From Thermoanaerobaculia bacterium (lineage in GTDB: Bacteria > Acidobacteriota > Thermoanaerobaculia > Multivoradales > Multivoraceae), in NCBI GenBank assembly GCA_963664405.1, contig OY761158.1, positions 2,112,001 to 2,176,000 of the forward strand: a stretch of 64,000 nucleotides of DNA, read 5' to 3'. This document shows positions 14,460 through 58,182 of the stretch, in pieces. The position numbers and the translations under genes are program-made. The notes below the pieces were generated by a model. The model searched no databases. It was not told where the DNA came from and saw only the letters and a program-made list of their open reading frames with translations. The first letter of the stretch is position 1. Every line of letters starts with the position of its first letter.

Positions 14460-14799
14460 GCCGGCCAGCGGCAGCTGGAAGTTGATCCACTTCGGAGAAT
14501 CGGTGGCGCTCGACGAGCATCCGACAGGTAAGATCGAGCTCTACAAGCTCGCCTCCGAGGCCGGAGAGACGAAGGACCTTGTGGAGCGGCATCCCCAAAT
14601 CGTCAAGGAGCTCTTTGCAAAAATGCACAAATTCCGCCTGATGGCGCCGAGCGCCGCAACCGCCGACTTCTACGACGGCGCCCCGCAAGAAACGCGGGAC
14701 TTCCACGCCCTGTTTCGTCAGGGGGAAGCACCTGACGACCTCAACCATGCGATCCCCGGCGTCGTGGCCCCGGTTCAGTGGCGCATTCCTTCCCTATGA
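14460..14799 (+). pseudogene. C-terminal remnant of a sulfatase
   Basis: GSWKLI...ELYKLASEAGETKDLVERHPQIVKEL resembles the sulfatase C-terminal ELYDL..DP.E..DL...P motif; no CxPxR upstream; its TGA overlaps the ATG of the next gene. Confidence 0.6.
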
Positions 14800-17462
14800 T
14801 GCCCGCACGCGCCAAATCGATCGCCGCTTGGATGGCCGTCGCAATGCTCGTCGGCGGCGGCTGCGCCGATCGCGCCCAGCGCACCGAGCCGACGTCCACG
14901 GATGACTACCTCTCCACGGAGCTACGGCGGGAGGTCGAGAAGCTCAAGCGCGACGTTGCCCAGTCGCCAACGACCGCGGCGACCCTGCCGGAGCGGGTAG
15001 ACGTTCTGTGGCCGTGGGCCAACGCCTACGCGCTGACCGGCGGCCCGATGCCGGTCAACTTCCCGCTCGAGGTGACCGTCGTGCGCTGGGGAGCCGCCGA
15101 CGATCGAGGGCCCGACGACACTATCGTCGAGGACATGGACTTCTTCACCCTCACCCGCCTGTCGTCGGTGATGGACGGCTACGTTCGCGAGTTCACGCTC
15201 AAAGATGAGACCCCCGATGCCCTCGGCGAGCTCCGCCTCGATCCCGGCACCCCTCTCGCGGCCGGGAGCTGGACGACACTGCAGGTGATCTGGACGGTGG
15301 GGTCGGTGCCGATGCAGCCTGGTGGCGCTCTTCTCATGGGGACCCAGTACATGGGCGACCAGGGCCGTGAACAGACCGGCGATCCGGCCGGCGACCACTT
15401 CGTCTCGATCGCGTCGTCGAATCCGGAGGCCCGCTTCGAGCCGACGGAGGTGCCGCTCTCGGGGCTCCACGGCGGCTTCGTAGTCGAAAGACCGACGCCC
15501 GCGTACCGCCTGCTCGGCCCTCAGCTCGAGCCCGGTGACACTGTCACTCTCACCTACGGCGACCGCTCGGGCGGATCTCGTGGGCTGAAGGTACAGAGCT
15601 TCACCACCGATGCTCTGATCCTCCCGGTCTATCTCGATCTCGACGGCCAGGGCCGCTTCGTCACGCCGAGCTGGCCCAGTGTTCCCATCCTCGGCGGCGA
15701 GATCCGGTCGATCTGGCCGCTCGCACCGTCGGTGGTCGACCCCGGCGAGACCTTCAGCCTCGGAATCCGTAGTCAGGACGGTCTCTACAACCGCGCCACC
15801 GGCGCCATCCCCGGCTACAGGGTGCACCTCGATGGCGAGCTGGTCGCCGAGGTCGCCGCCGGGACCGCACCGGTCGTTTCGGTCCCGAACCTCGCGATCG
15901 ACGAGCCGGGGGTCCACCGCCTCGAAGTCGCCTCGGCCGACGGCAAGCTCCGAGCTACGAGTAATCCAATCTGGGTCCGCGACAGCGCTCAGACCCCTCG
16001 CATTCTCTGGGGCGAGACGCACGGCCATAGCGGCTTCGCCGAGGGCCAGGGCACGGCGGAGGGCTACTTTCTCTACGCCAGAGAGGACTCCCGCCTCGAC
16101 TTCGTCACTCTCTCGGAGCACGACTTCTGGATGGACGATTTCGAGTGGAAAAGGCTGCAGGACCTCTCGCGAGAAGCGACAGCGAGTGGGCTGGTAGCGT
16201 TCCTCGGCTACGAGTGGACGGCCATCCGTTCGCGCGGCGGACACCACAACGTTCTCTTCCGCACCCCCGACCACAACCGCGTGCCCCTCCAGGAGGCCGG
16301 GCGGCTATCTGCTCTCTATGAAGGCCTGCGCCGAGAGGTGGACCCCGACGATGTCGTCGTCATTCCACACGCCCATATGGCCGGGGACTGGACCCAGAGC
16401 GATGCCGATCTCGAGCGCCTCACCGAGATCTATTCGATGCACGGCACCTTCGAGTGGTTCGGCAATATGTATCTGCGTAACGGCTGGGAGATCGGCTTCG
16501 TCGCTGCGTCGGACGACCACCGTGCTCAACCGGGGGCGCCCCACGGCCTCTATCGCCTGACCCTGGCCGGTAGCGGGGGACTGGCCGCGGTGCTGGCGCC
16601 GGAGCGCACCCCCGACGCCATCTTCGACGCCATGCGCTCGCGCTCGGTCTACGCGACGTCCGGCCCGAGGATTCTCCTCGATGCCAAGCTCAACGGGCAC
16701 CCGATGGGGACTCGTCAACCCGACGCCACGGAGCGGAAGATCGAGTGCCGAGTTTTCGGAACCTCCCCGATCGATCGTATCGACGTGGTGAAAAACGGCG
16801 AGATCGTCATGACCAGGCGCTACCTCGGGACCGCGCTCGACGGCGACCCTTGGGTGCTGGTCGGCTTCGAGTCGGAGTCCGAGGTCTTCACTCTGGACAC
16901 CACCGACAACCCGCGCCCGTACCGGCGCTGGAAAGGCACGATCGAGGTGGAGGGGGCAGACGTCACTGGCGTCTCGGGGCCGGGGCTCGACAACATCATC
17001 GTCGATGCCTTCGAGGTCGACCCGGAGAGCCCGAACAAGATCCATTTCAACGTCCTGACCCGAGGTCGGCGCGACGCTCTACTGGTCAAGCTGGCTGACG
17101 CCTCGACCACCACCACCTTCAGCATCCACCTCGAAGAGACCACGGAAGAGGGCCTCGGTCGGCCTGAGACCATCCGTCCCGCCCAGGACCTGCCGGGGGA
17201 CGATCTCACTCTGCCCTTCACCGACCTTGTGGGCGGCCGACTCGAGCGCGAGCTAAGGGTCGGTGAGCACACCGATCGCGTCTCCATCGAGATCGTCGAT
17301 CCCGAGGCGGCGCTGGACCGCGACTTCGAATTCACCGACCTCGAGAGCCCACGGCCCGGGGACTACTACTACGTCAGGGTCACCCAGCTCGACAGCGGCC
17401 GGGCCTGGTCGAGTCCGTTCTGGGTTGGCGAGAAGGACACCGAGCCATCAGGAGAACGCTGA
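14796..17462 (+). CDS. Large PHP/DUF3604-like (CehA/McbA-related) metallohydrolase lipoprotein, paralogue 1
   Basis: Lipobox GGGC; WGETHGH, SEHD, GYEWT, GHHNV, IPHAH, ASDDH, YATSG, DYYYVRVTQLD..RAWSSPFWVG. Confidence 0.8.
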   Translation: MMPARAKSIAAWMAVAMLVGGGCADRAQRTEPTSTDDYLSTELRREVEKLKRDVAQSPTTAATLPERVDVLWPWANAYALTGGPMPVNFPLEVTVVRWGAADDRGPDDTIVEDMDFFTLTRLSSVMDGYVREFTLKDETPDALGELRLDPGTPLAAGSWTTLQVIWTVGSVPMQPGGALLMGTQYMGDQGREQTGDPAGDHFVSIASSNPEARFEPTEVPLSGLHGGFVVERPTPAYRLLGPQLEPGDTVTLTYGDRSGGSRGLKVQSFTTDALILPVYLDLDGQGRFVTPSWPSVPILGGEIRSIWPLAPSVVDPGETFSLGIRSQDGLYNRATGAIPGYRVHLDGELVAEVAAGTAPVVSVPNLAIDEPGVHRLEVASADGKLRATSNPIWVRDSAQTPRILWGETHGHSGFAEGQGTAEGYFLYAREDSRLDFVTLSEHDFWMDDFEWKRLQDLSREATASGLVAFLGYEWTAIRSRGGHHNVLFRTPDHNRVPLQEAGRLSALYEGLRREVDPDDVVVIPHAHMAGDWTQSDADLERLTEIYSMHGTFEWFGNMYLRNGWEIGFVAASDDHRAQPGAPHGLYRLTLAGSGGLAAVLAPERTPDAIFDAMRSRSVYATSGPRILLDAKLNGHPMGTRQPDATERKIECRVFGTSPIDRIDVVKNGEIVMTRRYLGTALDGDPWVLVGFESESEVFTLDTTDNPRPYRRWKGTIEVEGADVTGVSGPGLDNIIVDAFEVDPESPNKIHFNVLTRGRRDALLVKLADASTTTTFSIHLEETTEEGLGRPETIRPAQDLPGDDLTLPFTDLVGGRLERELRVGEHTDRVSIEIVDPEAALDRDFEFTDLESPRPGDYYYVRVTQLDSGRAWSSPFWVGEKDTEPSGER

Positions 17463-18691
17463 TGGCGGCTCTCTCCTGTCTGTATCCCGTGCTCACCGTC
17501 GCCCTCGTCTTGGGGGTCGCGCTCCCAGGCTGGGCGGCGGAGCCGGAGCTCACCAACCAGATCCTCTTCCCCGAGGAGCCGCACGCCTGGTACCGCATCC
17601 CCTCGCTGGCCATCTCCAAGAGTGGCGTCGTCCTCGCCTTCGCCGAACGGCGCATCGGCACCGCTCACGACTACGGCCACGACAGCGAGAGCGTGCTGCG
17701 CCGGAGCTTCGACTCCGGCAAGACCTGGGCGCCGATCCAGACCATTATCAGCGAGAAGCATCTCGATCCCGACAGTGGGCCTGTGGTCGTCGACTACCAG
17801 ACGGGCCGCATCTTCCGGTTCTTCAAGTGGGTATCCTCGAGCGTGCGCTCGGCTCAGTGGGACACCGAGCACCCCGAGGAGATGAAGAAGCTCGGCTACG
17901 CATCGTACGAGATCCACAGCGACGATGATGGCGTAAGCTGGTCGCTGCCAAGGAACATCGGCCTCCACCACCCCGAGGCGAAGAGCCGGTTGAGCGTCGG
18001 CAACGGCAGCCACGGGATCCAGCTCGCGGACGGGCGGCTTGTGATCCAGGGCGGCTGGATGGCGGAGCCGAACTGGGTCAGCGCCGGCAAGTACATGCGG
18101 GGCTGCTTCATCGTCAGCGACGACCATGGGGAGACCTGGAGGATCGCGGGCTACTACAAGCCGACCGAGGAGGACCTCCGGACCAAGCCAACGACCGCGC
18201 CCGGAGGCATGCAGGTCGAGTACAACCTCTTGGAGCTCAACGATGGCTCGATCTACGTCAACGCGAGAGCCGCCCGCAATGCCGTCGGCATCGACGCCGA
18301 CCATCCCTGGCGCACCATCCTCTGGAGCAAGGACCGCGGCGAGACCATGGAAGGGTGGCACTATCAGGAAGGGCAGATCAGCGGCACCCACGCCGGGCTC
18401 CAACGCTACGACCACGACCGCATCCTGATGTCGTTCGCCACCAAGTCGGGACGCCGCGAGATGTCGATCACGATGAGCCCCGACGAGGGCAAGAGCTGGC
18501 CGACCACCAAGGTCATCGATCCGGGACCGGGGAGCTACTCGGACATCGCCGTCACCGCGGACAAGGACATTCTGGTCCTCTACGAGGCAGGTCACCAGGA
18601 CCGGACCGTGACCTCAGGGACGCAGCCCGGAGGGTGGGCCGACTGGCTCTCGCTGGCGCGCTTCAACAAGACCTGGCTCGAGACGAAGTAG
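17462..18691 (+). CDS. Exo-alpha-sialidase-like (GH33/BNR-repeat) protein
   Basis: Signal peptide; YRIP motif; Asp-boxes SFDSGKTW, SDDDGVSW, SDDHGETW, SKDRGET, SPDEGKSW; SYSD. Confidence 0.85.
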   Translation: MAALSCLYPVLTVALVLGVALPGWAAEPELTNQILFPEEPHAWYRIPSLAISKSGVVLAFAERRIGTAHDYGHDSESVLRRSFDSGKTWAPIQTIISEKHLDPDSGPVVVDYQTGRIFRFFKWVSSSVRSAQWDTEHPEEMKKLGYASYEIHSDDDGVSWSLPRNIGLHHPEAKSRLSVGNGSHGIQLADGRLVIQGGWMAEPNWVSAGKYMRGCFIVSDDHGETWRIAGYYKPTEEDLRTKPTTAPGGMQVEYNLLELNDGSIYVNARAARNAVGIDADHPWRTILWSKDRGETMEGWHYQEGQISGTHAGLQRYDHDRILMSFATKSGRREMSITMSPDEGKSWPTTKVIDPGPGSYSDIAVTADKDILVLYEAGHQDRTVTSGTQPGGWADWLSLARFNKTWLETK

Positions 18692-18700
18692 GCTATCGAG

Positions 18701-20113
18701 ATGGCTTGTCGATCTGAACTAGGAGAGCGCGTTCGTGCCCCAGGGCGGCACACGACGTACTTTCTTCTCGCGCTCGGCCTGTCGTTCGCCGGCGTCGCCA
18801 CTGGCCAGACGGCTTCGGCCTCGCCCAAGCCCAACGTGCTCTTCATCGTCGTCGATGACCTCAACGACTGGGTGGGCTACCTCGGAGGCAACGCGCAATC
18901 CCCGACGCCGAACCTCGATCGGCTGGCCCGTCGAGGAGTCCGCTTCACCCACGCCTACGCCCCCGTCTCGGTCTGCAATCCCTCTCGCGCCGCGGTCCTC
19001 TCCGGCATGCGGGCGTCGACCACCGGCGTCTACGACAACCACACCGACTGGCGCCCGCTCGTCCCCGAGCCCCAGATGATCACCGCCCAGTTCCGCAACG
19101 CCGGCTACTGGGTCGCCGGCGCAGGGAAGGTTCATCACTATCTTCGTGCAAGCGACTGGAACGAGTTCATCAGGAGCAAAGACGGCTTCAGGCGCCGGCC
19201 CGGCGACACGATGCACCGCTCGAGCGTCAACGACGTGCCCGACGACGCGATGGCGGACCACCGCAACGTGACCTGGCTCGTCGAGCAGCTCCAGAAGGAG
19301 CGCGATCAGCCCTTGTTCCTCGCCGCCGGGCTGATGAAGCCTCACCTACCGTGGAACGTGCCGCGCAAGTACTACGACCGCTTCCCGGTCGAGATCATCG
19401 AGCTGCCGCCGTACCTGGAAACCGACCTCGGCGATCTGCCACCGATCGGCGTGAAGCAGGCCCGTGAAGTGGGGCGCGGGCCGATGGCCGAGAGCGACCA
19501 CGAGAAGATCCTCCGGACCGGGCGGTGGAAGGACACCATCCAGGGCTATCTGGCGGCGATCGCGTTCATGGACGGGCAGCTCGGCCGGCTCATCGACGCG
19601 CTCGATCACAGTCCCATGCGCGACAACACCATCGTGGTGCTGTGGAGCGACCACGGCTGGCATCTCGGAGAGAAGCATCACTGGCGCAAGATGACCTTAT
19701 GGGAGGAAGCCACCCGCGTGCCCTTCCTCTGGGTCGTTCCCGGCGTGACCAAGCCGGATACCGTCTGTAACCGAACGGTCGATCTCATGAGCATCTATCC
19801 GACGCTGATGGAGCTCGTCGGTCTGCCGATCCCGGAGCACGTCGATGGCGTCAGCATTCACCAGCTGCTCGCCGACCCGACTTCGGAGTGGAAGCGTCCG
19901 GCGCTCTCCACCTATCTCTTCGAGAACCATGCCATCCGGTCGGACAATTGGCGCTACATCCGCTACTCCGACGGCGGCGAAGAGCTCTACAACGAGGAGA
20001 AAGATCCCAACGAGTGGACCAATCTGGCGGGGAAACCAGAGCTCTCCTCGGTGAAGGCGAAGCTGGCGAATTTCCTCCCAAAGGTCAACGCCCAGCCGGG
20101 GCCCCGGATGTAA
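18701..20113 (+). CDS. Sulfatase (iduronate-2-sulfatase/choline-sulfatase-like)
   Basis: PNVLFIVVDDLND, CNPSRAAVLSG, KPHLP, WSDHGWHLGEK. Confidence 0.92.
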   Translation: MACRSELGERVRAPGRHTTYFLLALGLSFAGVATGQTASASPKPNVLFIVVDDLNDWVGYLGGNAQSPTPNLDRLARRGVRFTHAYAPVSVCNPSRAAVLSGMRASTTGVYDNHTDWRPLVPEPQMITAQFRNAGYWVAGAGKVHHYLRASDWNEFIRSKDGFRRRPGDTMHRSSVNDVPDDAMADHRNVTWLVEQLQKERDQPLFLAAGLMKPHLPWNVPRKYYDRFPVEIIELPPYLETDLGDLPPIGVKQAREVGRGPMAESDHEKILRTGRWKDTIQGYLAAIAFMDGQLGRLIDALDHSPMRDNTIVVLWSDHGWHLGEKHHWRKMTLWEEATRVPFLWVVPGVTKPDTVCNRTVDLMSIYPTLMELVGLPIPEHVDGVSIHQLLADPTSEWKRPALSTYLFENHAIRSDNWRYIRYSDGGEELYNEEKDPNEWTNLAGKPELSSVKAKLANFLPKVNAQPGPRM

Positions 20114-20196
20114 GGGGGACCGCCTGGCGGCGAGGACCGAAACCCTGAGCTTTGTCAGATCGATGCGGCCCCTCCCACCTTCCGTCCGCGGGCGGC

Positions 20197-21914: not shown

Positions 21915-21959
21915 GCGGTGCTCAGCGCGGCTCGGTCGCTTGGCACGCAGCCCGTGCCG

Positions 21960-22700: not shown

Positions 22701-22746
22701 GCTCTGTCTCCTAACTAGTCGCTCAGCCGAAACTACGAGTCACTCC

Positions 22747-25570: not shown

Positions 25571-25588
25571 GTCAACAATTCTCAACCG

Positions 25589-25658: not shown

Positions 25659-26531
25659 TTGCTCACGGCGATCAAATACCGTTTCGACGCCTTGTCAAAA
25701 CACAGTCAAGCTGTTCCCGGCCCGGACAGCAATCCCCGCCTTGCCCGCAAGGCTCGGGAGCAGCTCCGCCGGCAGCAGGACATCCTGTCTGTGGCACGGG
25801 ATGTTTTGCAGCAAGAAGGCGTCGCCGGTTTCTCGATGGAGCGCATCGCAGAGGAGGCTGGCTATTCGCGCACCGCCGTCTACCACTACTTCCCGTCGAA
25901 GGAAGATGTGATCATGGCTCTGGCGATCGAGACCACGGAGCTGCGCCTCCAGCTGCAGGATCGGGTCAGGCACTTCGATGCCCGACCCCGCGAGCGCATG
26001 GTCGCCCTCGGCGAGGTGACGGCGGTCCTCTACCCGGTGCATGTCGTCGCCGAGGTCATCGCCTACGCCAACGCCGTGCGCATCAAAACCTCCGACGAGC
26101 TGCAGCAGCACCTCCGCAACCTCGACCAGCAGGAGGACGCGGTCGCCGCGGAAGTAATCGCAGAGGCTGTCCAATGCGGAGATCTCAGCCTACCGCAAGG
26201 TATACGGTTGCACGAGCTCCGCTACGCTCTCGACACCTTTGGTCGTGGCATTTTCAGCTCCATCGCCACCGCCACGCCGTTCGAAGAGCTCGACATCCCC
26301 GACCCCCGAGTTCTGCTGCGCAAAGTCGGAGTCCACTTTCTCGACGGTCTGCAATGGCAACCCCTGAGCACCGAATGGGACTACAGCAGAACCATGAGGC
26401 GGATCTACAGCGAGGTGTTTCCGCCGGCCTTCCTCTTCTCTCTTGGTCTGGCATCGGACCAACCTCGGGTCCGTAAGAGCTCGGCTCGCGGCGCCGTTCC
26501 CGCCGAGGAAACCGCCGACACGAGCTCTTGA
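25659..26531 (+). CDS. TetR/AcrR family transcriptional regulator
   Basis: ILSVARDVLQQEGVAGFSMERIAEEAGYSRTAVYHYFPSKEDV HTH; start uncertain. Confidence 0.92.
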   Translation: MLTAIKYRFDALSKHSQAVPGPDSNPRLARKAREQLRRQQDILSVARDVLQQEGVAGFSMERIAEEAGYSRTAVYHYFPSKEDVIMALAIETTELRLQLQDRVRHFDARPRERMVALGEVTAVLYPVHVVAEVIAYANAVRIKTSDELQQHLRNLDQQEDAVAAEVIAEAVQCGDLSLPQGIRLHELRYALDTFGRGIFSSIATATPFEELDIPDPRVLLRKVGVHFLDGLQWQPLSTEWDYSRTMRRIYSEVFPPAFLFSLGLASDQPRVRKSSARGAVPAEETADTSS

Positions 26532-29256: not shown

Positions 29257-29735
29257 TGAAGACAATCCGATTCGACGATATCGACACCCTCCGCCAGCAG
29301 GTGTCGAACGAATTCGGACCCTGGAGTGAGCCGATCGACGTGAGCCAGGAACTGATCGACGGGTTCGCCGCTCTCACCGGCGACGACGAGTGGATTCACG
29401 TCGACGTCGAGCGTGCGCGGCGCGAGAGCCCCTTCGGCGGACCGATCGCGCACGGCCTCTTGACTCTGAGTCTGTTCTCGAAACTTCCGGGCGACGGCTC
29501 TTTCGAAATCGTCGGCCATGGCAACCCGGCGAACTATGGGCTCGATCGCGTCCGCTTTCTCAGCCCGGTACCGGCCGGCGCGCAGCTTCACGCCCGCGCG
29601 CGCGTCGCCGAGGTCGAGGCAAAGCCCACAGGCACCCTTCTCGCCAGGGAAATCGAAGTGGGAGTCGTCGGAAGCGAGCGGCCGGCCATGATCTGCCGCC
29701 CCCTGACGCTTTTCCAGAAGGCTGTCGAGGCCTAG
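29256..29735 (+). CDS. MaoC-family dehydratase
   Basis: FAALTGDDEWIHVD, IAHGLLTLS, NYGLDRVRFLSPV; GTG start overlaps the upstream TAG. Confidence 0.9.
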   Translation: MKTIRFDDIDTLRQQVSNEFGPWSEPIDVSQELIDGFAALTGDDEWIHVDVERARRESPFGGPIAHGLLTLSLFSKLPGDGSFEIVGHGNPANYGLDRVRFLSPVPAGAQLHARARVAEVEAKPTGTLLAREIEVGVVGSERPAMICRPLTLFQKAVEA

Positions 29736-29747
29736 AGCATTAGCGTC

Positions 29748-30938
29748 ATGTCTGCACTCGAAGGTCTCGTGGTCCTCGACTTCTGCCACGATCGCCCGGG
29801 CTCCTACACCACGATGTTCCTGAGCGACTTCGGGGCCGAGGTGATCAGCGTCGATGCCCCGCCAGGGGTGGTCGAAGACATCGACAATCTCGAGGCCGGT
29901 GGCGGCGTCAGCCCAGAGTTGCTCGCGGCCCACTCGATCGTCGAACGCAACAAGAAGAGCATCCAGGTCAACCTGAAGACCGCAGAGGGGCAGGAGGTCG
30001 TTCAGCGCCTGGCGAAGAAGGCGGACGTCTTGGTGGAAGGCTTCAGCCCCGGCGTCATGGCCCGCCTGAAGGTGGATTGGCCCACCCTGCAAAAGATCAA
30101 TCCACGGCTGATCTACTGCTCGCTGAGTGGCTTCGGCGCCGACGGGCCCTACGCCGACCTGCCCGGCCACGACTGGAACTACACCGGCATCGGGGGAGCG
30201 TTGAGCCTGATCGGGGCACGCGACGGCCCTCCCTACCTTCCGGCCAGCTTCATCGCCGACATGGCGGGGGCGGGGCTGCACGGGGTCATCGGCATTCTTC
30301 TCGCGGTCGCCGCCAGAGAGCGAACGGGACTCGGACAGTTCGTCGACGTGACCTATCTGGACGGTGTGATCTCGCTCCTCGCCGCCGAGTCTTCGAGCTA
30401 CTTCCTCACCGGCAAGGTACCTCGCCGCGGCCGGACCAATCACACCGGCGGCGCGCCCTGGGCCAACGTCTACCGATGCCAGGACGGCGAGTACCTCACA
30501 GTGGGCTGCGCCGAGACCCACTTCTGGGTCAATCTATGCACGGCCATCGACCGTGAAGATCTCATTGCCCGCAAGGACCCCCCGCCAGAGGAGCTTGACG
30601 AGGTGGTGGCGGAGCTGGCGAAGGTCTTTGTGACCCGGACCCGCGACGACTGGGTCGACTTCTTCCGCGACAAGCGGGTCTGCGTCGGTCCGGTCAACAA
30701 CATCGACGAGACCTTCGCGGATCCTCATGTAAAACATCGCAATATGGTGATCGAGATCGACCACCCAGAGCTCGGTACAGTGCGGCAGGCGGGTATACCC
30801 ATCAAGCTGTCGGCGACTCCTGGCGAGGTTCGTAGCGTCGGTACTCCCAGTGGCACCGAGAGCGACCAGGTGCTTCGCGAGCTCGGATACAGCGACCAAG
30901 AGATCGAGAAGCTGCGCAGCGCTCATGCGGTCGGCTAG
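29748..30938 (+). CDS. CaiB/BaiF family III CoA-transferase
   Basis: LEGLVVLDF, RNKKSI..NLK, ADVLVEGFSPG, NPRLIYCSLSGFG, GHD.NY, catalytic IADMAG. Confidence 0.92.
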   Translation: MSALEGLVVLDFCHDRPGSYTTMFLSDFGAEVISVDAPPGVVEDIDNLEAGGGVSPELLAAHSIVERNKKSIQVNLKTAEGQEVVQRLAKKADVLVEGFSPGVMARLKVDWPTLQKINPRLIYCSLSGFGADGPYADLPGHDWNYTGIGGALSLIGARDGPPYLPASFIADMAGAGLHGVIGILLAVAARERTGLGQFVDVTYLDGVISLLAAESSSYFLTGKVPRRGRTNHTGGAPWANVYRCQDGEYLTVGCAETHFWVNLCTAIDREDLIARKDPPPEELDEVVAELAKVFVTRTRDDWVDFFRDKRVCVGPVNNIDETFADPHVKHRNMVIEIDHPELGTVRQAGIPIKLSATPGEVRSVGTPSGTESDQVLRELGYSDQEIEKLRSAHAVG

Positions 30939-44194: not shown

Positions 44195-44196
44195 TG

Positions 44197-51893: not shown

Positions 51894-54536
51894 CTAACGA
51901 GCTCCCCCGGAAGCCATCGCTCCAGTCGGCCTCCGACCTACCCAGAAGGGGCTGGACCACGCACGCCCACCATCCAGTTGGGAAACGCGGACATAGTAGT
52001 AGTCGCCGGGCGCTCCGGGCTCCATGTCGACGAAGTCGAAACTCTGATGCCAGGGAGCTTCGGGATCGACGATCTGCAGCGCGACCCGATCCTGATGGCG
52101 ACCGACCGGAAGCACCTGTTCGACGCGACTGTCGTCGAGATCGCGCAAGCGCAGCTCGACATGGGCGGCGGGAATGTCCACCGGCTCACGGACCAGGGGC
52201 GGAGCGAAGCCGTTCTCGCGCGCGGCCTCGAAGTCGAAGATGAAGGCAGTGTCGGCCGACGAGCCCTCTAACTCCACCAAGAGGGTGTGCATGCGCCCAC
52301 GAGTCTCGACGTAGAAGCGAATCTCGTCGGAGCCCTCCGGCTCTACCCTCGCCCATTCGAGATAGCGATTCTTCAGACCCGGCGTCTGCAGGCTCAGCAC
52401 CTTCGCGCCTTCGACCCGCAAGGTGCCGGTCCACACCCGATAGACACGCGGGTTGTCGCGATCGGGCACGAAGACTTCCGACGAAGACTCGAAGCCCACC
52501 TGCACCCAGGCGTGATCGCTGAGCGGCGCCGACATGTAGCTGCGACTGAGGATGACCTCGGCGTTACGCACGACATCAATGCGATCGATGGGGGCCGTGC
52601 CGAGCACCTGGCACGCGATCTCGCGGCGATCGGCAGCCTCCAACCGCGTCCCCATCGGCTCTCCGTTGAGAGTCGCGTCGACGACGATGCGCTCACCCGT
52701 AGTGGCGTAGGCGCGCAACGAGCGCAGCCCATCAAAGATCCCGTCGGTGGTCTTTGCCGGCGCCAGCACCGCCGCCAGACCCCCGCCTTGAACCTGCGGC
52801 GAAAAGAATAGCCCCGGCGCGTATCCGGGCTTCGATCGGTGGTCGTCCGATGCCGAGATGAAGCCGATCTCGAAACCGTTCAATAGATAGCGATTGCCGA
52901 ACCACTCGAAAGTACCGTGCATCGAGGAGATCTCGACCAGCTTCTCCAAGTCCCCGTCGTTGGTGTTCCAGTCTCCCGCCTGGTGGGCATGTGGAATGAC
53001 CAGTACGTCCTCTACAGCGCTCTCTCGTCGCAAACCCTCGTAGAGATCAGCGAGAGCAGGAGCCTCCTGGTTCGGCACCCGACGGTGATCGGGGGTGCGG
53101 AAAAAGACGTTGTGATGGCCTCCGAGCTCGCGAGTCGCACTCCACTCGTAGCCGAGATAGGCGACGAATCTCCCTTGCTCGGTGAAGCTGCGGCTCATCT
53201 CCTGGAACATTCGCCACTCCGAGTCGTCCATTGAGGAGTCGTGGTCGGTCAGCGAAACGAAATCGAGGCGGGCATCGTCGCGGGCGTAGGTGAAGAACTG
53301 CTGCGCCGAGCCCTGACCCTCGGCATAACCGGAGTGACCGTGGGTCTCCCCCCAATACACACGGTAGGGGGGATCCTCGCTCACCCAGATCGGGTTGCTC
53401 ACAGCGTGGAGATCCCCATCCGCCGATCGCACCTCGAAGCGGTGAGGGCCAGGAGTCGAGATTCGAAGATCCGTAAGCACGACGATCGGCTCTTCCCCGG
53501 CCTGGACTGTCGCCACGGCCTCCTCCCCCAGCAGTACCTCGTAGGCGGGAGTGGCGCCGCTGCTGCGGTTGGTGTAGCGATCCTCACTGCGCACGATCAG
53601 CTCGAAGGGCTCGTCGACGGCCACCACCGACGGAGCAAAAGCCACCACCGCACGCACCTCTTCGCGCCCGACAACCTCCAATCCTGGCCAGTTGGCACTG
53701 TAGAAATGACCTTCGCCATCGAAGTCGAGGTAGATCGGCAGCAAGAGGTTGTCTGTGGTCAGGGTCTGGAGACGGAGGCCCGCCGACCCACCCTCGCGAT
53801 CGCCATAGGTGACCGTGAAGCTCTCCCCCTCTTCCAGGCTGCCGCTGAGCAGCCGAAAGCTGGGCATCGGCTTCGCATCCTTGAAGCCGCCGTGCCTCCC
53901 GCTGCGCGGAATGGTGAACTTCTCGAAGCTCACTTCGGGATCCGAGACGCGCAGAGAAACATAGCCATCGGCGGCGGGATCTTCGTGCTGCATATCTCCC
54001 TGGTCGGCCATGATCTGGCCACCGAGGAGAATCACGGCCCCGACTTCGAGCGGCTTGGTTCCAACCGTGTAGGTCTGCTCGATCGTGTTGTACGAGTCCG
54101 CGACCAAGGGCTCGGCTGACGCGAATCGCAGCGAGCCGATCGCTCCGGGATCCTCGTCTTTGACCCGGAGCTCGCGAATCATCCCGTCGAAACCGGCGAG
54201 CACTCGAGCCGGCGGCACCACACCCATGGTCGCGTCACGGGTCAGACGCATCACCGTAGTCGGGCCGTCGGCCGGCACCGCGCCCCCGGTCAGAGAGAAG
54301 GCGTTGCTCCACTGGAAGAAGACTTCGGAGCGCTCGACGAAGTTGCTCTCCGACGTCGGCTCCGCTTCGACCTCCTCCTTCAGTCGCTCGACGCGGAGGC
54401 GCAGCTCCGGGCTGAGGTAGTCCTCACGCTCCGAAGAAGGGGCCGAACAGGCACTGCAGACAACAATGGCAGCCAAGCCGTAGCTGCCTGCAAAGGCTCT
54501 CCAGAGACCTGTCCGCGGTTCCGATTCTCGCTTCAA
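51894..54536 (-). CDS. Large PHP/DUF3604-like metallohydrolase lipoprotein, paralogue 3
   Basis: Lipobox CSAC; DYLSPELR, WSNAFSLTGG, WGETHGH, TDHD, IPHAH, ASDDH, RAWSSPFWVG; the 55151 start rejected because it overlaps the SDR, TTG at 54536 assumed. Confidence 0.8.
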   Translation of the reverse strand: MKRESEPRTGLWRAFAGSYGLAAIVVCSACSAPSSEREDYLSPELRLRVERLKEEVEAEPTSESNFVERSEVFFQWSNAFSLTGGAVPADGPTTVMRLTRDATMGVVPPARVLAGFDGMIRELRVKDEDPGAIGSLRFASAEPLVADSYNTIEQTYTVGTKPLEVGAVILLGGQIMADQGDMQHEDPAADGYVSLRVSDPEVSFEKFTIPRSGRHGGFKDAKPMPSFRLLSGSLEEGESFTVTYGDREGGSAGLRLQTLTTDNLLLPIYLDFDGEGHFYSANWPGLEVVGREEVRAVVAFAPSVVAVDEPFELIVRSEDRYTNRSSGATPAYEVLLGEEAVATVQAGEEPIVVLTDLRISTPGPHRFEVRSADGDLHAVSNPIWVSEDPPYRVYWGETHGHSGYAEGQGSAQQFFTYARDDARLDFVSLTDHDSSMDDSEWRMFQEMSRSFTEQGRFVAYLGYEWSATRELGGHHNVFFRTPDHRRVPNQEAPALADLYEGLRRESAVEDVLVIPHAHQAGDWNTNDGDLEKLVEISSMHGTFEWFGNRYLLNGFEIGFISASDDHRSKPGYAPGLFFSPQVQGGGLAAVLAPAKTTDGIFDGLRSLRAYATTGERIVVDATLNGEPMGTRLEAADRREIACQVLGTAPIDRIDVVRNAEVILSRSYMSAPLSDHAWVQVGFESSSEVFVPDRDNPRVYRVWTGTLRVEGAKVLSLQTPGLKNRYLEWARVEPEGSDEIRFYVETRGRMHTLLVELEGSSADTAFIFDFEAARENGFAPPLVREPVDIPAAHVELRLRDLDDSRVEQVLPVGRHQDRVALQIVDPEAPWHQSFDFVDMEPGAPGDYYYVRVSQLDGGRAWSSPFWVGRRPTGAMASGGAR

Positions 54537-54582
54537 AGCGTCTTTCAAGCTACCATTCCAACTAATCCTTGGCAACGAAAAA

Positions 54583-54598
54583 TAGATTGATTGGTCTA
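54583..54598. promoter_or_regulatory. Operator candidate TAGATTGATTGGTCTA
   Basis: Palindrome extends to ATAGA...TCTAT with A/T flanks; lies in the divergent promoter of paralogue 3 and SDR-paralogue 4. Confidence 0.65.
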
Positions 54599-54663
54599 TC
54601 TTTTTTCCGGTAACCTGCCGCCCTCGGAACGAAGGAGTCAGCGCGTCAACAGGGGGCATCCAG

Positions 54664-55512
54664 ATGGGAATACTCGAAGGCAAGGTCGCCATCATCACCG
54701 GCGCCGGCAACGGTCTCGGCCGCTGCCACGCACTTCTCTTCGCAAGAGAAGGAGCGAGGGTCGTGGTCAACGATCCGGGCTGTGAGCGCGACGGCTCGGG
54801 CGAGGGCGATGCAGCGGACCAAGTCGTGCAAGAGATCCGAGACGCAGGAGGCGAGGCCGTCGCCGACAAAAACCCGGTCGGCACCTTCGAGGTCGCGCAG
54901 AAGATCGTCGACGGTGCCGTCGAGGCCTTCGGTGGTCTCGACATCCTGGTCAACAACGCCGGCATTCTGCGCGATCGCACTGCGCTCAAGATGTCTCCGG
55001 AGGACTGGTTCTCTGTGCTCACCGTGCACCTCACCGGCACTTTCTCCTGCCTCCAGGCGGCAGGGCGGGTGATGCGTGAGCAGGCCCGCGGTGGACGTAT
55101 CATCAATACCACCTCGATCGCCGGCCTCCAGGGCAACTTCGGCCAGAGCAACTACGCCGCCGCCAAGGCCGGGATCTATGCCGTGACCCGGACTGCCGCC
55201 ATCGAGCTCCAGCGAGGCGGCATCACTGTCAACGCCATCTCGCCGACAGCGCTGACAAGGCTCACCTCCGACAATGCCGGCGTGAGCGACGATTTCGGGC
55301 TGCGCTACGGCCCCGAGCAGGTGTCGCCGCTGGTCGCCTTTCTCGCTTCCGACGAAGCAGCCAACATCACCGGCCAGACCTTCGGGGTCGAAGGCACACA
55401 CATCTTCGCCTACCACATGCTGAGCACGGTGGGGGCGAAGATGCACGTCGGTGATGGGCCCTGGGAGCCAGCCGACCTCGCCGGACCGGTCCAACAGGCG
55501 ATGGCTTTCTGA
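54664..55512 (+). CDS. SDR oxidoreductase (3-hydroxyacyl-CoA dehydrogenase/MFE-2-like)
   Basis: TGAGNGLG, VVVND, NNAGILRDR, GNFGQSNYAAAK. Confidence 0.93.
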   Translation: MGILEGKVAIITGAGNGLGRCHALLFAREGARVVVNDPGCERDGSGEGDAADQVVQEIRDAGGEAVADKNPVGTFEVAQKIVDGAVEAFGGLDILVNNAGILRDRTALKMSPEDWFSVLTVHLTGTFSCLQAAGRVMREQARGGRIINTTSIAGLQGNFGQSNYAAAKAGIYAVTRTAAIELQRGGITVNAISPTALTRLTSDNAGVSDDFGLRYGPEQVSPLVAFLASDEAANITGQTFGVEGTHIFAYHMLSTVGAKMHVGDGPWEPADLAGPVQQAMAF

Positions 55513-55527: not shown

Positions 55528-58182
55528 GTGGAATCCATTGCAGTGTGGGCGCGGCGGGCGTCGTGGTGCCTGGTCGGCCTCCTTCTCTCTTGTGGCCCGA
55601 GCGACTACCAGGAGCCCGGCGCGGCCCCCCCCAAGGCGACGGATCTGCGTGCGCGCGTCGAGCAGCTCCGCCATGACGCTCGCAGAGAGCCGACCACGAA
55701 GGAGAATGTCTACCGCCGAGCCGACGTGGTCTGGGAGTGGGCCAACGCGATGGCCCTCGCCGGCGAGGTCATACCGGCCGATGTACCTCTGACCATCGCC
55801 TTGATTCGCTTCGCCGAGGCCGACGGGGGTGTGATCGATCTCACCCCGGGGATCGAGCTACCGCTCGAGCTCCACATCCCCCGGCTCGATCAGTACATCG
55901 CCGAGCTCGGGCTCAAGGAAGACGACCCGACGGCCCTCGGAAAATTGCACTTCCCTTCCCAGGAACCGCTGTTGGCGCGGAGTTGGGGGACCGTCGAAGA
56001 GATCTACACCGTCGGCACGACCGCAGTGGCGGTGGGAGGCGGTTTCCTCATCGGCAAAGCAGGCACCACAGATATCACGCGGCCACAGAACGAGGATCCC
56101 GCCGCCAACAACTACGTCACTGTCCGCTCGTCCAATCCAGACGTGCGTTTCGAGCCTCATCAGGTGCCCTGGAACGGGGTGCACTCCAACGTTCCGGCCA
56201 AACGCCCGCTGCCCGCCTTCCGAGTGGAAGGAGCCGGACTCGAGCCCGGCGACACGGTGACCGTCACTTTCGGTGACCGCTCTGGAGGCTCCCCGGGTCT
56301 GGTCATCCCGACCCACTCCAACGACGCCTTTCTGCTTCCGGTGTATGTCGACCTAGGGGGCGACGGCAACTACATGACACCGCGGTTCCCGGCTCGCGAA
56401 GTCGTCGGACAGCCCGAGCCAACGGCGGTCCGCCTGCTCGCCCCTTCGATCGTAAGGCCTGGTGAAAGTTTCACGCTGACGGTGCGAAGCGAAGACGAAG
56501 CCATGAATCGTTCGAGCGGGGAGAGTCCTGCCTACGAAGTTTCCCTCCACGGCGAGACGGTGGCGCGGATTCCTGCCGGTCTTGGCGCCCTCGCGACTCT
56601 GCCGGAGATCAGTCTCAACGAGCCCGGTATGCATCGCTTCCTCGTCCGCTCTGCAGACGCCGGCCTCGAAGGATGGAGTAACCCGATCTGGGTCGAGGAG
56701 GATCCGAAGCACCGCATCTACTGGGGAGATACCCACGGACACACCGGCCTAGCTGAGGGTCAGGGCTCGGCGCGCGCTTTCTTTCGCTACGCCAAAGACG
56801 ACGCGCGACTCGACTTCGTCACGCTCTCGGAGCACGACATCTGGATGGATGATTCCGAGTGGTTCACGATGCAGGATCTCACTCGCGAATTCAGTGCCGA
56901 TGGCGACCTGGTCGGCATCATCGGTTACGAGTGGACCGCCTTCAACAACCGCGGCGGTCACCACAATGTCTTCTTTCGCAAGCCGCTGAGCGCGCGCGTC
57001 GGTGTGCAGGACGCAACCAGGCTCGCCGACCTCTATCGCGAGCTGCACCGTCTCTACGATCCCGGCGACGTCCTCGTGATCCCCCATGCGCACCGCTCAG
57101 GTGATTGGACGCGCAGCGATCCCGAGCTCGAGCGTCTGGTCGAGCTCTATTCCGTTCACGGCAGCTTCGAGTGGTTCGCCAACAAGTACCTCATGAACGG
57201 CTTCGAGCTGGGTTTCGTCGCCGCCGCCGACGATCACCTCGCCAAGCCCGGTCTCTCCCCGCCACCCACCAGTAGCGTTTCGCAGCCCGGGGGGCTCGCG
57301 GCGGTGCTCGCCGGCGAGAAGACGACAGATGCCATCTTCGACTCGTTGCGCGGTCTTGCGACCTATGCCACGTCGGGGCAGCGCATCATCCTCGACGCGA
57401 GCCTCAACGGCTTCGCGATGGGCACGCGCCAGGCCGACACCAAGAACAGAGAGATCCGCTGTCGGGTGATGGGCACCTCCCCGATCGAGAGCATCGACGT
57501 GATCAAGAACGGCGAAGTCGTCCTCGGCCGGCGTTATCTCACCAAGCCTCTCACCCGGCACGCGTGGCTTCAGGTCGCCTTCGCCTCGTCCTCGGAAGTC
57601 ATCGGTCCCGAGCGCGACAACCCACGCGGTTACCGGCTGTGGAAGGGCACTCTCGAAGTCTCGGGAGCTCGTGTCGTCTCGCTCGATCCCGCGGGCATCG
57701 ACAACCCGGTGCGCGAATCGGTGGAGCTAGAGGAGGGCGGAAACAGGATCCGCTTCGAGATCCTGACTCGAGGCCGCGCCGATTCGATGCTCCTCGAGCT
57801 CGAAGGGGCGAGTGTCGACACCTCCCTTCATTTCACTGTCGAGCCCACCCGAGAGATAGGACCGGCGCCCATTTTGCGACCCGCCGCCAACATCGACGCC
57901 GTCGACATCCACCTCCGCCTTAGCGATCTCCAAAGCGGTAGGCTCGAGCACGAGCTCCTCGTCGGTGAGCACGTCGACAGCATCGCTCTACAGGTGATCG
58001 ATCCCGAAGGGGCCTTAGACCGAGATTTCGAGTACACCGATCTCGGCGAAAGAGCCAGCGGTGACTACTACTACGTGAGGGTCACTCAGCTCGACGGCGG
58101 CCGCGCCTGGTCGAGCCCGTTCTGGGTCGGCGAACGGGACCCCTACGGTGAAACGCGCCGGCGCCGGACTACCAGTAGGTAG
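55528..58182 (+). CDS. Large PHP/DUF3604-like metallohydrolase lipoprotein, paralogue 4
   Basis: Lipobox LLSC; WEWANA, WGDTHGH, SEHD, IPHAH, ADDH, DYYYVRVTQLDGGRAWSSPFWVG. Confidence 0.8.
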   Translation: MESIAVWARRASWCLVGLLLSCGPSDYQEPGAAPPKATDLRARVEQLRHDARREPTTKENVYRRADVVWEWANAMALAGEVIPADVPLTIALIRFAEADGGVIDLTPGIELPLELHIPRLDQYIAELGLKEDDPTALGKLHFPSQEPLLARSWGTVEEIYTVGTTAVAVGGGFLIGKAGTTDITRPQNEDPAANNYVTVRSSNPDVRFEPHQVPWNGVHSNVPAKRPLPAFRVEGAGLEPGDTVTVTFGDRSGGSPGLVIPTHSNDAFLLPVYVDLGGDGNYMTPRFPAREVVGQPEPTAVRLLAPSIVRPGESFTLTVRSEDEAMNRSSGESPAYEVSLHGETVARIPAGLGALATLPEISLNEPGMHRFLVRSADAGLEGWSNPIWVEEDPKHRIYWGDTHGHTGLAEGQGSARAFFRYAKDDARLDFVTLSEHDIWMDDSEWFTMQDLTREFSADGDLVGIIGYEWTAFNNRGGHHNVFFRKPLSARVGVQDATRLADLYRELHRLYDPGDVLVIPHAHRSGDWTRSDPELERLVELYSVHGSFEWFANKYLMNGFELGFVAAADDHLAKPGLSPPPTSSVSQPGGLAAVLAGEKTTDAIFDSLRGLATYATSGQRIILDASLNGFAMGTRQADTKNREIRCRVMGTSPIESIDVIKNGEVVLGRRYLTKPLTRHAWLQVAFASSSEVIGPERDNPRGYRLWKGTLEVSGARVVSLDPAGIDNPVRESVELEEGGNRIRFEILTRGRADSMLLELEGASVDTSLHFTVEPTREIGPAPILRPAANIDAVDIHLRLSDLQSGRLEHELLVGEHVDSIALQVIDPEGALDRDFEYTDLGERASGDYYYVRVTQLDGGRAWSSPFWVGERDPYGETRRRRTTSR

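Follow-up and report, generated by a model that had tools for sequence, protein, structure and literature searches.

A 22-copy family of exported long-form PHP-type proteins, predicted metal-dependent hydrolases, in a Thermoanaerobaculia genome

The studied enzymes nearest to the proteins described here are the diesterases Sb-PDE and No-PDE, to which they are linked via a fold match to 3E38 and not via the Sb-PDE sequence, and the CehA/McbA carbaryl hydrolases. [quoted passage not shown] The alpha/beta/gamma ligands of the trinuclear zinc site in No-PDE/3E38 are H61, H63, D68, H93, E135, H142, H203, D260 and H262, and the similarity network of Sb-PDE was drawn at an alignment score of 40, about 30% identity (PMC11656708). 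CehA/McbA are exported or periplasmic and have essential His residues in a PHP-like domain, which lies some 450-500 residues from the N-terminus (PMC8292978). The exported DUF3604/PHP-type proteins, for their part, form a very large family without assigned activity.

We analysed a 64,000-nucleotide stretch of DNA (the window) in which an initial annotation had singled out four paralogous genes, called A to D here. Open reading frames of about 860-900 aa each were found where it had placed them (Table 1). The four proteins could be aligned collinearly with MAFFT over 912 columns, B, C and D being 54, 52 and 51% identical to A. All the motifs it had listed were found in the alignment, namely the LR..VE motif of the cap, the G.xHG loop (H225), T(Y/F)GDRxGGSxG, APSxV...RSxD...NR, SNPxWV, the PHP motifs and DYYYVRVxQLDxGRAWSSPFWVG. 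The collinearity, the open frames and the purifying selection described below bear out the claim that A to D are intact paralogues. A family of four was too low a count: the 6.78-Mb genome holds 22 full-length long-form copies, A to D among them. The same genome encodes ~50 canonical DUF3604 genes and 12 genes of the type found at position 41396 of the window (41396-type), and the expansion of the superfamily amounts to ~85 genes in all three architectures, roughly 180 kb or 2.6% of the genome (a rough sum of copy numbers multiplied by typical gene lengths). A degraded remnant of one further long-form copy was also seen elsewhere in the genome, and at 4.67 Mb one 41396-type gene directly adjoins a long-form copy.

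Table 1. Long-form genes A to D, parts of protein A and neighbouring genes in the window.
Feature	Position	Strand	Evidence or remark
Canonical full-length DUF3604 protein, 628 aa, 1 kb upstream of A	11892..13778	+	PF12228 654 bits, profile 3-591
Paralogue A, exported long-form PHP (DUF3604-like) predicted metallohydrolase, 888 aa	14796..17462	+	ORF, Pfam, NF038032, AF2; alternative ORF start 14778
A, signal peptide with lipobox (VGGG-C23)	14796..14864	+	Lipobox regex; low-pLDDT N-terminus, helix 5-21
A, four-helix cap, residues 41-138, LR..VE...W.NA motif	14916..15209	+	Helices 41-56, 64-79, 89-101, 119-138 (AF2)
A, beta-sandwich 1, residues 145-301: Q193, His loop (H225), TYGDRSGGS motif	15228..15698	+	VIA
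A, Ig-like beta-sandwich 2, residues 302-397 (APS.V...RS.D...NR, SNP.WV)	15699..15986	+	VIA
A, PHP barrel, residues 398-625	15987..16670	+	VIA; nine predicted metal ligands
A, C-terminal beta-sandwich, first half, residues 626-676	16671..16823	+	Strands 627-675 (AF2); aligns to 41396 protein 840-888
A, inserted beta-sandwich, ~160 aa, residues 677-838 (GFESSSEV..DNPR.YR.W.GT..TRGR)	16824..17309	+	BLASTP gap versus 41396 protein
A, C-terminal beta-sandwich, second half, residues 839-880 (DYYYVRVTQLD.GRAWSSPFWVG)	17310..17435	+	Aligns to 41396 protein 896-932
BNR/sialidase-like gene; start overlaps A stop by one base	17462..18691	+	PF13088, E 3e-21
Sulfatase, third gene of likely A operon	18701..20113	+	PF00884, E 6.5e-46
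TetR regulator, 25 nt upstream of B	25659..26531	+	PF00440
Paralogue B, 899 aa	26557..29256	+	ORF, Pfam, NF038032, alignment; alternative ORF start 26443
MaoC-like hydratase and CaiB-type CoA-transferase, directly downstream of B	29184..30938	+	PF01575, PF02515
41396-type comparison protein: other N-terminal part, PHP, uninterrupted C-terminal sandwich; 1 of 12 in genome	41396..44197	-	Pfam, BLASTP
Paralogue C	51894..54548	-	ORF 51894-55151; true start much further in, uncertain: TTG at 54548, 54536 or 54476
SDR gene upstream of D, divergent from C	54664..55512	+	PF00106
Paralogue D, 884 aa	55528..58182	+	ORF, alignment; 15 nt after SDR gene

The AF2 model of full-length A (pLDDT 93.5, pTM 0.92, values indicating a fixed packing between the domains) comprises, in order, a signal peptide/lipobox, a four-helix cap, two Ig-like beta-sandwiches, the PHP barrel and a C-terminal beta-sandwich into which a further sandwich is inserted. 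In VIA, sandwich 1 matched YcnI (7me6; Z 10.1, rmsd 2.8, 120 aligned residues) and sandwich 2 matched GH2 C-terminal, CARDB, PKD and filamin domains (Z 8.5-10). The N-terminal module had been described as novel. It is indeed covered by no Pfam, PDB-sequence or Atlas family, but both its beta domains are common Ig-like folds and the whole module is widespread. The insert of about 160 aa said to split the C-terminal strands was recovered by BLASTP of A against the 41396 protein (E): A394-675 aligns with E573-888 and A844-880 with E896-932, leaving 168 residues in A (676-843) versus only 7 (889-895) in the 41396 protein. Modelled alone, the insert folds independently as a sandwich (pLDDT 91.2), with a best VIA Z of 7.1 and no Foldseek match at E<=1e-3.

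The distorted (beta/alpha)7 PHP barrel fold is present in the model of A, where VIA retrieved as best matches 2anu (Z 20.3, rmsd 2.8, 194 aligned) and 3e38 (Z 20.2, rmsd 3.1, 217 aligned), then PsfC (7rty, Z 16.3), EndoQ (5zb8, Z 14.2) and, at Z 9-13, DNA polymerase PHP domains and YcdX. Nine residues, H409, H411, E416, H442, E473, H483, H525, D573 and H575 (numbering of A), are the predicted ligands of a trinuclear metal site. Every one of the 22 copies of the genome has all nine, as do 86 of 90 foreign sequences, even between phyla and at identities as low as 40%. In order and spacing they resemble the No-PDE/3E38 pattern, onto which they may be mapped residue by residue, judging from this spacing. 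Among the family models, Pfam PF12228 scores 52.4, 47.6, 47.7 and 54.2 bits in A to D (gathering cut-off 20.4) with a partial match of about a quarter of the profile (positions ~117-221 and 375-412 of 591), and the CehA/McbA metallohydrolase domain NF038032 scores 74.6, 79.9, 82.4 and 66.5 bits, respectively, for a cut-off of 80 bits. A sequence-profile search of PDB chains gave no solved relative at E<=1.

Relatives with the whole architecture, 42-57% identical, occur in several phyla, among them uncultured Acidobacteriota and Gammaproteobacteria as well as Hydrogenedentota, Verrucomicrobiota, Nitrospirales and Myxococcota. These relatives are annotated solely as "DUF3604 domain-containing" or "hypothetical", and no characterised enzyme with the full long-form architecture was among the relatives found. 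A to D are real, intact copies of a widespread exported family of predicted metal-dependent hydrolases.

The duplications had been proposed to be old, with pairwise identity and dN/dS as a check. Identities range from 50.1 to 55.3% over all pairs of A to D, and NG86 dS values from 1.2 to 1.8, which is saturated. Relatives of A in other genomes reach 95% and 72-75% identity versus 55% for the best copy of its own genome, and A, B and C each fall alone among the foreign sequences of a tree that contained 90 of them. From the identities, the saturated dS, the closer foreign relatives of A and the tree we conclude that the duplications are old. The dN/dS ratios of 0.13-0.36 correspond to purifying selection and, together with the nine ligands retained in every copy, indicate that the copies are kept under constraint. 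Retention of the old duplicates for different ester substrates would fit the varying neighbours and the varying accessory domains. The assembly was compared with contigs of runs X1 and X4. Window positions 11500-26935, with A, lie on one 17.7-kb contig of run X1, and positions 11500-29500, with A and B, on one 23.3-kb contig of run X4, both with 0 differences; X1 and X4 belong to different studies, X4 possibly being the source of this DNA. In a third study, a strain ~95% identical spans A and B.

The bacterial lipobox follows the pattern [LIVMFWSTAG]2-[LIVMFYSTAGCQ]-[AGS]-C, with an invariant Cys (PROSITE). The lipobox attributed to all four proteins fits this pattern in A (VGGG-C23), B (SLG-C) and D (LLS-C), but C is a near miss (..VVCSAC). 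Over the 22 copies, a regular expression search returned 11 strict lipoboxes, 2 near misses and 9 sequences without the Cys, while a hydrophobic N-terminus is present in 22/22. Long-form copies are predicted to be in part lipid-anchored and in part soluble in the periplasm.

We compared the conservation of the different parts over the 22 copies. Mean identity is 33% in the insert, 38% in the cap, 40% in sandwich 1 and 56% in the PHP barrel, the PHP core being the most conserved large domain; the most conserved part outside it is the second half of the C-terminal sandwich, with 59%. Among 15-residue segments, the one from residue 217, in the His-loop region, varies most, and the loop His itself (H225) is found in 11 copies only. 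Invariant residues are Q193, S312, R325, D328, N332, R625, R707, R756 and D827, followed by R710 (21/22) and R861 (20/22). The insert has a nearly invariant core (R707, R710, W712, R756, D827) so that, variable as it is, it is also a conserved functional element. The accessory parts as a whole have conserved cores, yet they are the fastest-changing regions between copies.

As had been noted, each copy has distinct neighbours: a sialidase-like gene and a sulfatase for A, TetR and MaoC/CaiB genes for B, an SDR gene for D, and for C a divergent transcription from the SDR-D pair. The survey was extended to 96 loci, made of three stretches of the window, 16 loci and 77 loci from other genomes (19 of the 96 being from this genome). 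The commonest neighbours were sulfatases (26 loci, of which 19 among the 77 in other genomes), acyl-CoA synthetases (up to 26), SDRs (~18), PQQ dehydrogenases (12) and SSF symporters (12). Canonical DUF3604 genes, near 8 of the 22 copies versus 2.9 expected (P 0.0025), are the sole clear enrichment in this genome. Acyl-CoA synthetases (6/22 versus 2.0 expected, P 0.012) lose significance on correction for nine tests, and near the 22 copies no enrichment was found for sulfatases (7/22 versus 4.1 expected, P 0.10; the genome has roughly 109-131 sulfatase genes from two counts), PQQ dehydrogenases (P 0.13) or CaiB (P 0.37). TonB-dependent receptors lie near 3/22 copies versus 1.3 by chance (P 0.14), which gives no support to a partnership with such receptors.

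The long-form proteins are probably a 22-copy family of exported ester-bond hydrolases with a trinuclear PHP barrel, in which the accessory parts would shape the substrate pocket. Each protein would be a single compact five-part enzyme. The barrel would hold a complete trinuclear metal centre, with two metals activating water and the third stabilising the leaving group, as in other PHP hydrolases; around it would pack four accessory parts, the cap, the two Ig-like sandwiches and the C-terminal sandwich with its insert. We infer catalysis and bond type from homology: the bond cleaved would be of ester type, most likely a phosphodiester or monoester, possibly a carbamate, carboxyl or other ester (cf. 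CehA/McbA). By shaping the pocket, the accessory parts may have directed the old duplicates to different ester compounds of complex organic matter. The alcohols and acids released would then pass to the PQQ dehydrogenases, acyl-CoA synthetases, CoA-transferases, hydratases and SDRs encoded nearby. As only DUF3604 genes are clearly enriched, this feeding into CoA pathways may only reflect a genome rich in such genes.

All copies could instead be phosphoesterases of one class, like Sb-PDE/No-PDE, scavenging phosphorus, with copy number a matter of dosage or leaving-group preference. PHP enzymes are mostly phosphoesterases, the nearest solved folds 2anu and 3e38 are predicted ones, Sb-PDE/No-PDE, the homologues of 3E38, carry a trinuclear Zn site (PMC11656708), and the conserved arginines R325, R625, R707, R756, R710 and R861 would suit an anionic substrate. 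We nevertheless hold this to be unlikely: 22 copies plus ~50 DUF3604 and 12 41396-type genes far exceed the usual need of phosphorus scavenging, the neighbours are carbon-catabolic (CoA ligases, SDRs, MaoC, PQQ dehydrogenases) with no Pho-type or phosphate-transport genes among those annotated, and the best-scoring curated sequence model is that of a carbamate-ester hydrolase domain, CehA/McbA. The tight three-gene unit formed by A with the BNR/sialidase-like gene and the sulfatase, the rank of sulfatases among the neighbours, their number in the genome and the Ig-like/cohesin-like accessory sandwiches, as found in many carbohydrate-active enzymes, would rather evoke glycan-tailoring esterases, stripping substituents from sulfated or acidic polysaccharides and glycoconjugates together with sulfatases and sialidase-like enzymes. 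Such a role appears improbable, given that sulfatases are not significantly more frequent near the copies in this genome than by chance, that no glycoside hydrolase or SusC/D-type gene is among the recurring neighbours, that B, C and D sit amid CoA-dependent acid-catabolism genes and that the sandwich matches are generic (Z about 7-10).

[quoted passage not shown] The presence of the nine ligands in all own and nearly all foreign sequences, within the most conserved large domain, makes this very improbable. Finally, repeated families are prone to mis-assembly and a degraded remnant does exist in the genome, but the reading of the copies as assembly artefacts or decaying duplicates has a negligible probability. 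It is refuted by the 45-50% protein divergence of A to D, the X1 and X4 contigs without differences, the ~95% variant of the third study, the open frames and the purifying selection, as the initial annotation had expected from the divergence.

Under the favoured reading, exported ester-bond hydrolysis, the 22 copies in one genome make a good target for finding new enzyme activity. These 22 diverged natural versions and the two sister architectures, each copy in its own gene context, provide a panel for studying substrates and the tuning by accessory domains. Should the substrates turn out to be organophosphate, organosulfate or other esters of the environment, the family would matter for the turnover of carbon, phosphorus and sulfur by uncultured bacteria that are abundant, and for bioremediation enzymes like Sb-PDE and CehA. 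More tentatively, the ~85 genes might make up a major class of exported ester hydrolases that has gone unrecognised, with which uncultured Acidobacteriota, Gammaproteobacteria and others would open complex organic matter. It would have a programmable pocket (the cap-plus-sandwich module and the insert) over a trinuclear site and, for some paralogues at least, chemistry new for PHP enzymes, e.g. on organosulfate, phosphonate-ester or carbamate-type bonds instead of simple phosphomonoesters; this is possible but doubtful.

Compared with known systems, the long form recalls each in part. CehA/McbA provide the best-scoring curated model (NF038032) for A to D, over residues ~400-720 at 66-82 bits with only C above the cut-off, but their substrate is a synthetic carbamate, which is not expected for the long-form copies, and no CehA/McbA record was among the matches listed by a plasmid tblastn search (best 60 of 65). 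The stand-alone predicted phosphoesterase TM0559 (2anu) has a barrel like that of A (194/224 residues aligned, 20% identity) but, unlike A, is single-domain and cytoplasmic, without accessory domains. Canonical DUF3604 proteins (PF12228, ~600 aa, exported) likewise have PHP-type core motifs and a C-terminal '...YYxRV...(A/S)WSSPxW' end, and both groups are hugely expanded in the genome and nearer each other than by chance. They lack the cap, the two N-terminal sandwiches and the inserted sandwich, and have long insertions inside the barrel instead; the canonical neighbour aligns by BLASTP to A451-626 only, with 25% identity. The 41396-type proteins are exported and expanded like the long form, with 25% identity to A in the PHP core and 49% in the C-terminal sandwich, but their N-terminal region is unrelated and their C-terminal sandwich uninterrupted. 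Finally, the two-domain PHP-like protein 3E38 (BVU_3505, 343 residues) has no cap, N-terminal sandwiches or insert. Its match spans residues 309-860 of the model, and in both proteins the barrel is directly followed by a C-terminal beta-sandwich, which in A is interrupted by the sandwich of ~160 aa.

Long ORFs were found at all four places in which the initial annotation had put paralogous lipoprotein genes, and the four proteins (copies A, B, C and D) were collinear over 912 alignment columns, each motif of its motif list being present in the alignment. Identity among the six pairs was 50.1-55.3%, copies B to D being 51-54% identical to A. An assembly artefact was ruled out by contigs from sequencing runs. 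The stretch carrying A lies within one 17.7-kb contig of run X1 and the stretch carrying A and B within one 23.3-kb contig of run X4, in both cases with 0 differences; the two runs come from different studies, of which X4 may be the source of the window DNA. In addition, a strain about 95% identical, from a third study (run X8), carries both A and B. The X8 contig, of depth around 2, shows several small indels at the start of a sulfatase gene. The four-gene feature is real and intact; it is also widespread and uncharacterised.

The window spans C1:2112001-2176000 of a genome that consists of a single 6.78-Mb contig with 62.6% G+C. Searching it with A using tblastn, we recovered 22 full-length paralogues of this long form, 39-55% identical to A and 36-76% identical to each other (median 43%), so that the four window copies are confirmed but the notion of a four-member family is not. 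The same genome encodes 12 proteins of the type found at 41396, a PHP protein of the window used for comparison, and about 50 full-length canonical DUF3604 proteins (50 matches of at least 538 bits, ranging from 538 to 817; 54 loci by tblastn), one of them encoded 1 kb upstream of A. Taken together, these counts make the four paralogues a corner of an expansion of about 85 PHP/DUF3604 genes. Some canonical DUF3604 genes stand in tandem and a few are in two pieces. A degraded-looking remnant of a 23rd long-form copy was also detected.

Within the taxonomic family to which this genome belongs, 17 of the 18 genomes scored have the long form, with at least 1-9 matches each; these counts are lower bounds since at most 30 candidates were scored per genome. 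The present genome gave 24 match rows in this survey, corresponding to the 22 copies (one split over two rows) and a short variant. Of 12 genomes representing other families of the order, 5 had no matches except short forms similar to this variant (again with at most 30 candidates scored per genome).

Coordinates of the features analysed (window positions unless marked C1, the contig of the whole genome, L, a fetched locus, or residues, in copy A numbering; identities are means among the 22 own copies)
Feature	Location	Strand	Description
Copy A	14796	+
Copy B	26557	+
Copy C	51894	-
Copy D	55528	+
41396 protein	41396-44197	-	different N-terminal part, uninterrupted C-terminal sandwich
718-aa ORF	39105-41261	-	SEC-C motif, C-terminal ParE-like toxin domain; directly downstream of the 41396 gene
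534-aa ORF	35576-37180	+	weak cbb3-type cytochrome c and copper type II monooxygenase C-terminal matches
Short ORFs only	58143-60100		between D and the PQQ dehydrogenase
Metallo-beta-lactamase match	59053-59694		partial, profile positions 3-80 of 196
DUF6152 gene	59611-60027
Stretch within the run X1 contig	11500-26935		carries A
Stretch within the run X4 contig	11500-29500		carries A and B
Run X8 contig	14901-29204		indels at 18702-18755
Long-form remnant	C1:5077415-5077952		two short pieces matching A residues 385-471 and 803-881, 51-53% identity
Short form	C1:1427109-1428701		648-aa ORF, long-form profile positions 125-650 only: sandwiches and PHP barrel, no cap, no C-terminal insert
Closest pair of copies (L004)	C1:1533846-1543240		about 3.3 kb apart, same strand
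Canonical DUF3604, examples	C1:6504686-6506461, 851987-853753
Canonical DUF3604, tandem sets	C1:2041799/2043795, 6350972/6352789/6354615
Canonical DUF3604, in two pieces	C1:3962959+3964080, 6354615+6355726
Klebsiella pneumoniae plasmid locus (homologue)	L094:6335-11259		about 787 aa
Rhizobium etli plasmid locus (homologue)	L095:6480-11406		about 787 aa
Signal peptide	N-terminus
Cap	residues 41-138		four helices, 38%
Beta-sandwich 1	residues 145-301		40%
Sandwich 2	residues 302-397		Ig-like, 46%
PHP barrel	residues ~398-625		56%
Beta-rich C-terminus	residues 626-880		two halves of the C-terminal sandwich, 50% and 59%
Insert			33%

Domain boundaries were taken from an AlphaFold2 model of the full-length protein built on a 105-sequence alignment, which confidently forms a single body (pLDDT 93.5, pTM 0.92). 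Family profiles gave partial or borderline results: PF12228 (DUF3604) matched A to D with 47-54 bits over profile positions ~117-221 and 375-412 of 591, and the NCBIfam CehA/McbA metallohydrolase domain with 66-82 bits for a cut-off of 80, copy C alone being above it. The model was then compared with representative structures (VIA). The barrel resembles TM0559 (2anu; Z 20.3, rmsd 2.8, 194 aligned residues) and the two-domain PHP protein 3e38 (Z 20.2, rmsd 3.1, 217 aligned residues spanning 309-860), followed by PsfC (Z 16.3) and EndoQ (Z 14.2). The nearest fold to sandwich 1 is YcnI (Z 10.1, 120 aligned residues), and sandwich 2 is like CARDB, PKD and GH2 C-terminal Ig domains (Z 8.5-10). Comparing the whole model with the PDB using Foldseek, 3e38 alone matched the core; GH2 galactosidases appeared as poor multi-domain look-alikes (TM ~0.15), which were rejected as evidence for kinship with glycosidases. 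A phmmer search of the PDB with A returned 0 matches at E<=1 and a profile search 2 matches, both at chance level; no solved relative was found in this way.

The initial annotation had described a C-terminal domain inserted relative to the 41396 protein, and BLASTP returned exactly this arrangement: two collinear segments (A394-675 with E573-888 and A844-880 with E896-932, E being the 41396 protein), between which 168 residues of A stand in place of 7. The insert length was counted in 112 aligned family members (22 own and 90 foreign, the 41396-type neighbour being excluded) and came to 153-167 aa in each of the 22 own copies and to 154-163 aa in 86 of the 90 foreign sequences. Folded alone from a 105-row alignment, the insert gave a confident ten-strand sandwich (pLDDT 91.2), but no specific solved relative emerged: its best match had a Z of 7.1 (Mfa5, collagen-adhesin and cohesin sandwiches), within VIA's stated background, and Foldseek with the insert alone found no match at E<=1e-3. 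We do not claim a new fold and treat it as a generic beta-sandwich.

Nine residues of the barrel region, H409, H411, E416, H442, E473, H483, H525, D573 and H575, are putative ligands of a trinuclear site, and the full set is kept in every one of the 22 own copies and in 86 of the 90 foreign sequences. Q193, S312, R325, D328, N332, R625, R707, R756 and D827, outside the barrel, are likewise invariant in the 22 copies. By contrast, just 11 of these 22 have H225 of the His loop, a G.RHG-type loop of sandwich 1. Over stretches of 15 residues, variability is highest in those beginning at residue 217 in the His loop, residue 91 in the cap and residue 734 in the insert. With their conserved cores and variable surfaces, the cap, the sandwiches and the inserted sandwich would form or gate the substrate site.

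A hydrophobic N-terminus was found in 22 of 22 copies. Using a PROSITE-like lipobox pattern, 11 copies (A, B and D among them) agreed with it and 2 (including C) nearly did, and the 9 lacking it resemble ordinary signal peptides. From these N-termini and counts, the family is predicted to be exported and lipid-anchored in part, not uniformly.

We also considered the proposal that the copies are old duplications kept for different substrates. Relatives of A in other assemblies are 95% (one) and 72-75% (several) identical to it, whereas no paralogue within the genome exceeds 55%. A FastTree tree was built from 112 sequences, with a foreign sample limited to the 80 best loci from a single scan. 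Interspersed with the 90 foreign sequences, the 22 own copies make up 13 clades that contain own copies only; A, B and C are singletons, and D belongs to such a clade of four. This topology fits old duplications or old acquisitions, together with some recent local expansion. The most similar pair, at 76% identity with a dN/dS of 0.13, is a recent tandem duplication. NG86 dN/dS among the four window copies was 0.25-0.36 and is of limited use because dS is saturated (1.2-1.8). Both the age of the copies and their retention under purifying selection were supported; as to the substrates, the old duplicates would have been retained probably for different esters.

Of 8000 candidates scored in a protein search, 1084 matched at E<=1e-3; PF12228 was present on 120 of the 120 matches listed, and these, where named, were called "DUF3604 domain-containing protein" or "hypothetical protein". 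Scanning one genome per species gave at least 432 relatives. In the best 77 of these loci, all from MAGs and assigned from record titles, the query was matched from residue ~5-40 to ~878 with 41-57% identity. They belong to Acidobacteriota (Candidatus Multivorans, Bryobacterales, Thermoanaerobaculia, Vicinamibacteraceae), Gammaproteobacteria (Pseudomonadales, Azotimanducaceae, Pseudohongiellaceae), Hydrogenedentota, Verrucomicrobiota, Nitrospirales, Myxococcota, Rhodothermaeota and Desulfobacterales. On its own, the N-terminal module (residues 36-400) matched 789 cluster representatives among 1.84 billion at E<=1e-3 (356 at <=1e-10, 114 at <=1e-30), and in the 150 matches listed it forms the N-terminus of proteins of ~840-955 aa or of fragments. 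Searching the ESM Atlas with the same residues gave no named look-alike, only unnamed or DUF3604-fragment clusters.

Distant relatives of ~25% identity cover A residues ~143-877, that is all but the cap, the insert region included, and are carried by plasmids of Rhizobium, Klebsiella, Azospirillum, Pantoea, Agrobacterium and Natrinema. The Klebsiella and Rhizobium homologue is the last gene of a conserved operon with a GntR regulator and an NMT1/TauT-type ABC importer, and the Rhizobium homologue adjoins the sulfur-acquisition genes sfnB, sfnG and msuE. This setting provides a lead towards an imported anionic organic substrate.

The window itself is a catabolic region rich in hydrolases and CoA enzymes. 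Its short ORFs between D and the PQQ dehydrogenase may represent gene decay of the kind to which the initial annotation alluded. To survey neighbours, ORFs were clustered from 96 stretches (3 of the window, 16 fetched loci and 77 best-scan loci), 19 of them from this genome, and no universal partner gene was found among these loci. Proximity within 8 kb of the 22 copies of this genome was then evaluated with 2000 random placements.

Gene classes around long-form genes (P values are single-test, from nine tests)
Class	In window	Loci of 96	Copies of 22	Expected	P
Canonical DUF3604		9	8	2.9	0.0025
Acyl-CoA synthetases	two	up to 26	6	2.0	0.012
Sulfatases	four	26	7	4.1	0.10
PQQ dehydrogenases	one	12	4	2.0	0.13
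TonB-dependent receptors (TBDRs)	present	8	3	1.3	0.14
CaiB-type transferases	two		2	1.3	0.37
SDRs	four	~18
ABC ATPases		14
2-hydroxyacid dehydrogenases		13
SSF transporters	present	12
MFS transporters	present
Alpha/beta-hydrolases	several
Arylesterase-like gene	one
MaoC and enoyl-CoA hydratases	present

A significant linkage to sulfatases in this genome was rejected: with roughly 109-131 sulfatase genes genome-wide (two counts), a sulfatase near a copy is likely by chance. TBDR proximity was also at chance level. Further exported or catabolic families are also numerous in this genome: PQQ dehydrogenases (39 loci), acyl-CoA synthetases (35), CaiB-type transferases (25) and TBDRs of the type found in the window (23).

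The best-supported reading of the long form is a predicted exported hydrolase of the PHP superfamily with a trinuclear metal centre. No characterised member was found in the literature searched, and bioRxiv 10.64898/2026.10.18.759936 describes DUF3604 as a poorly characterised family for which reports of metal binding or metalloenzymatic activity are lacking. The chief value of these copies lies in offering a natural panel with which a very large exported enzyme family could be de-orphaned. Two known systems come close, and in neither case was family membership reached by the tests run. The CehA/McbA carbaryl hydrolases are periplasmic, and their PHP-like domain contains three essential His around residues 467-504 (PMC8292978). 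The nearest characterised proteins are Sb-PDE and No-PDE, exported PHP phosphodiesterases related to 3E38; the trinuclear-site ligands listed for No-PDE/3E38 in PMC11656708 are H61, H63, D68, H93, E135, H142, H203, D260 and H262, to which, judging by order and spacing, the nine long-form residues would correspond.
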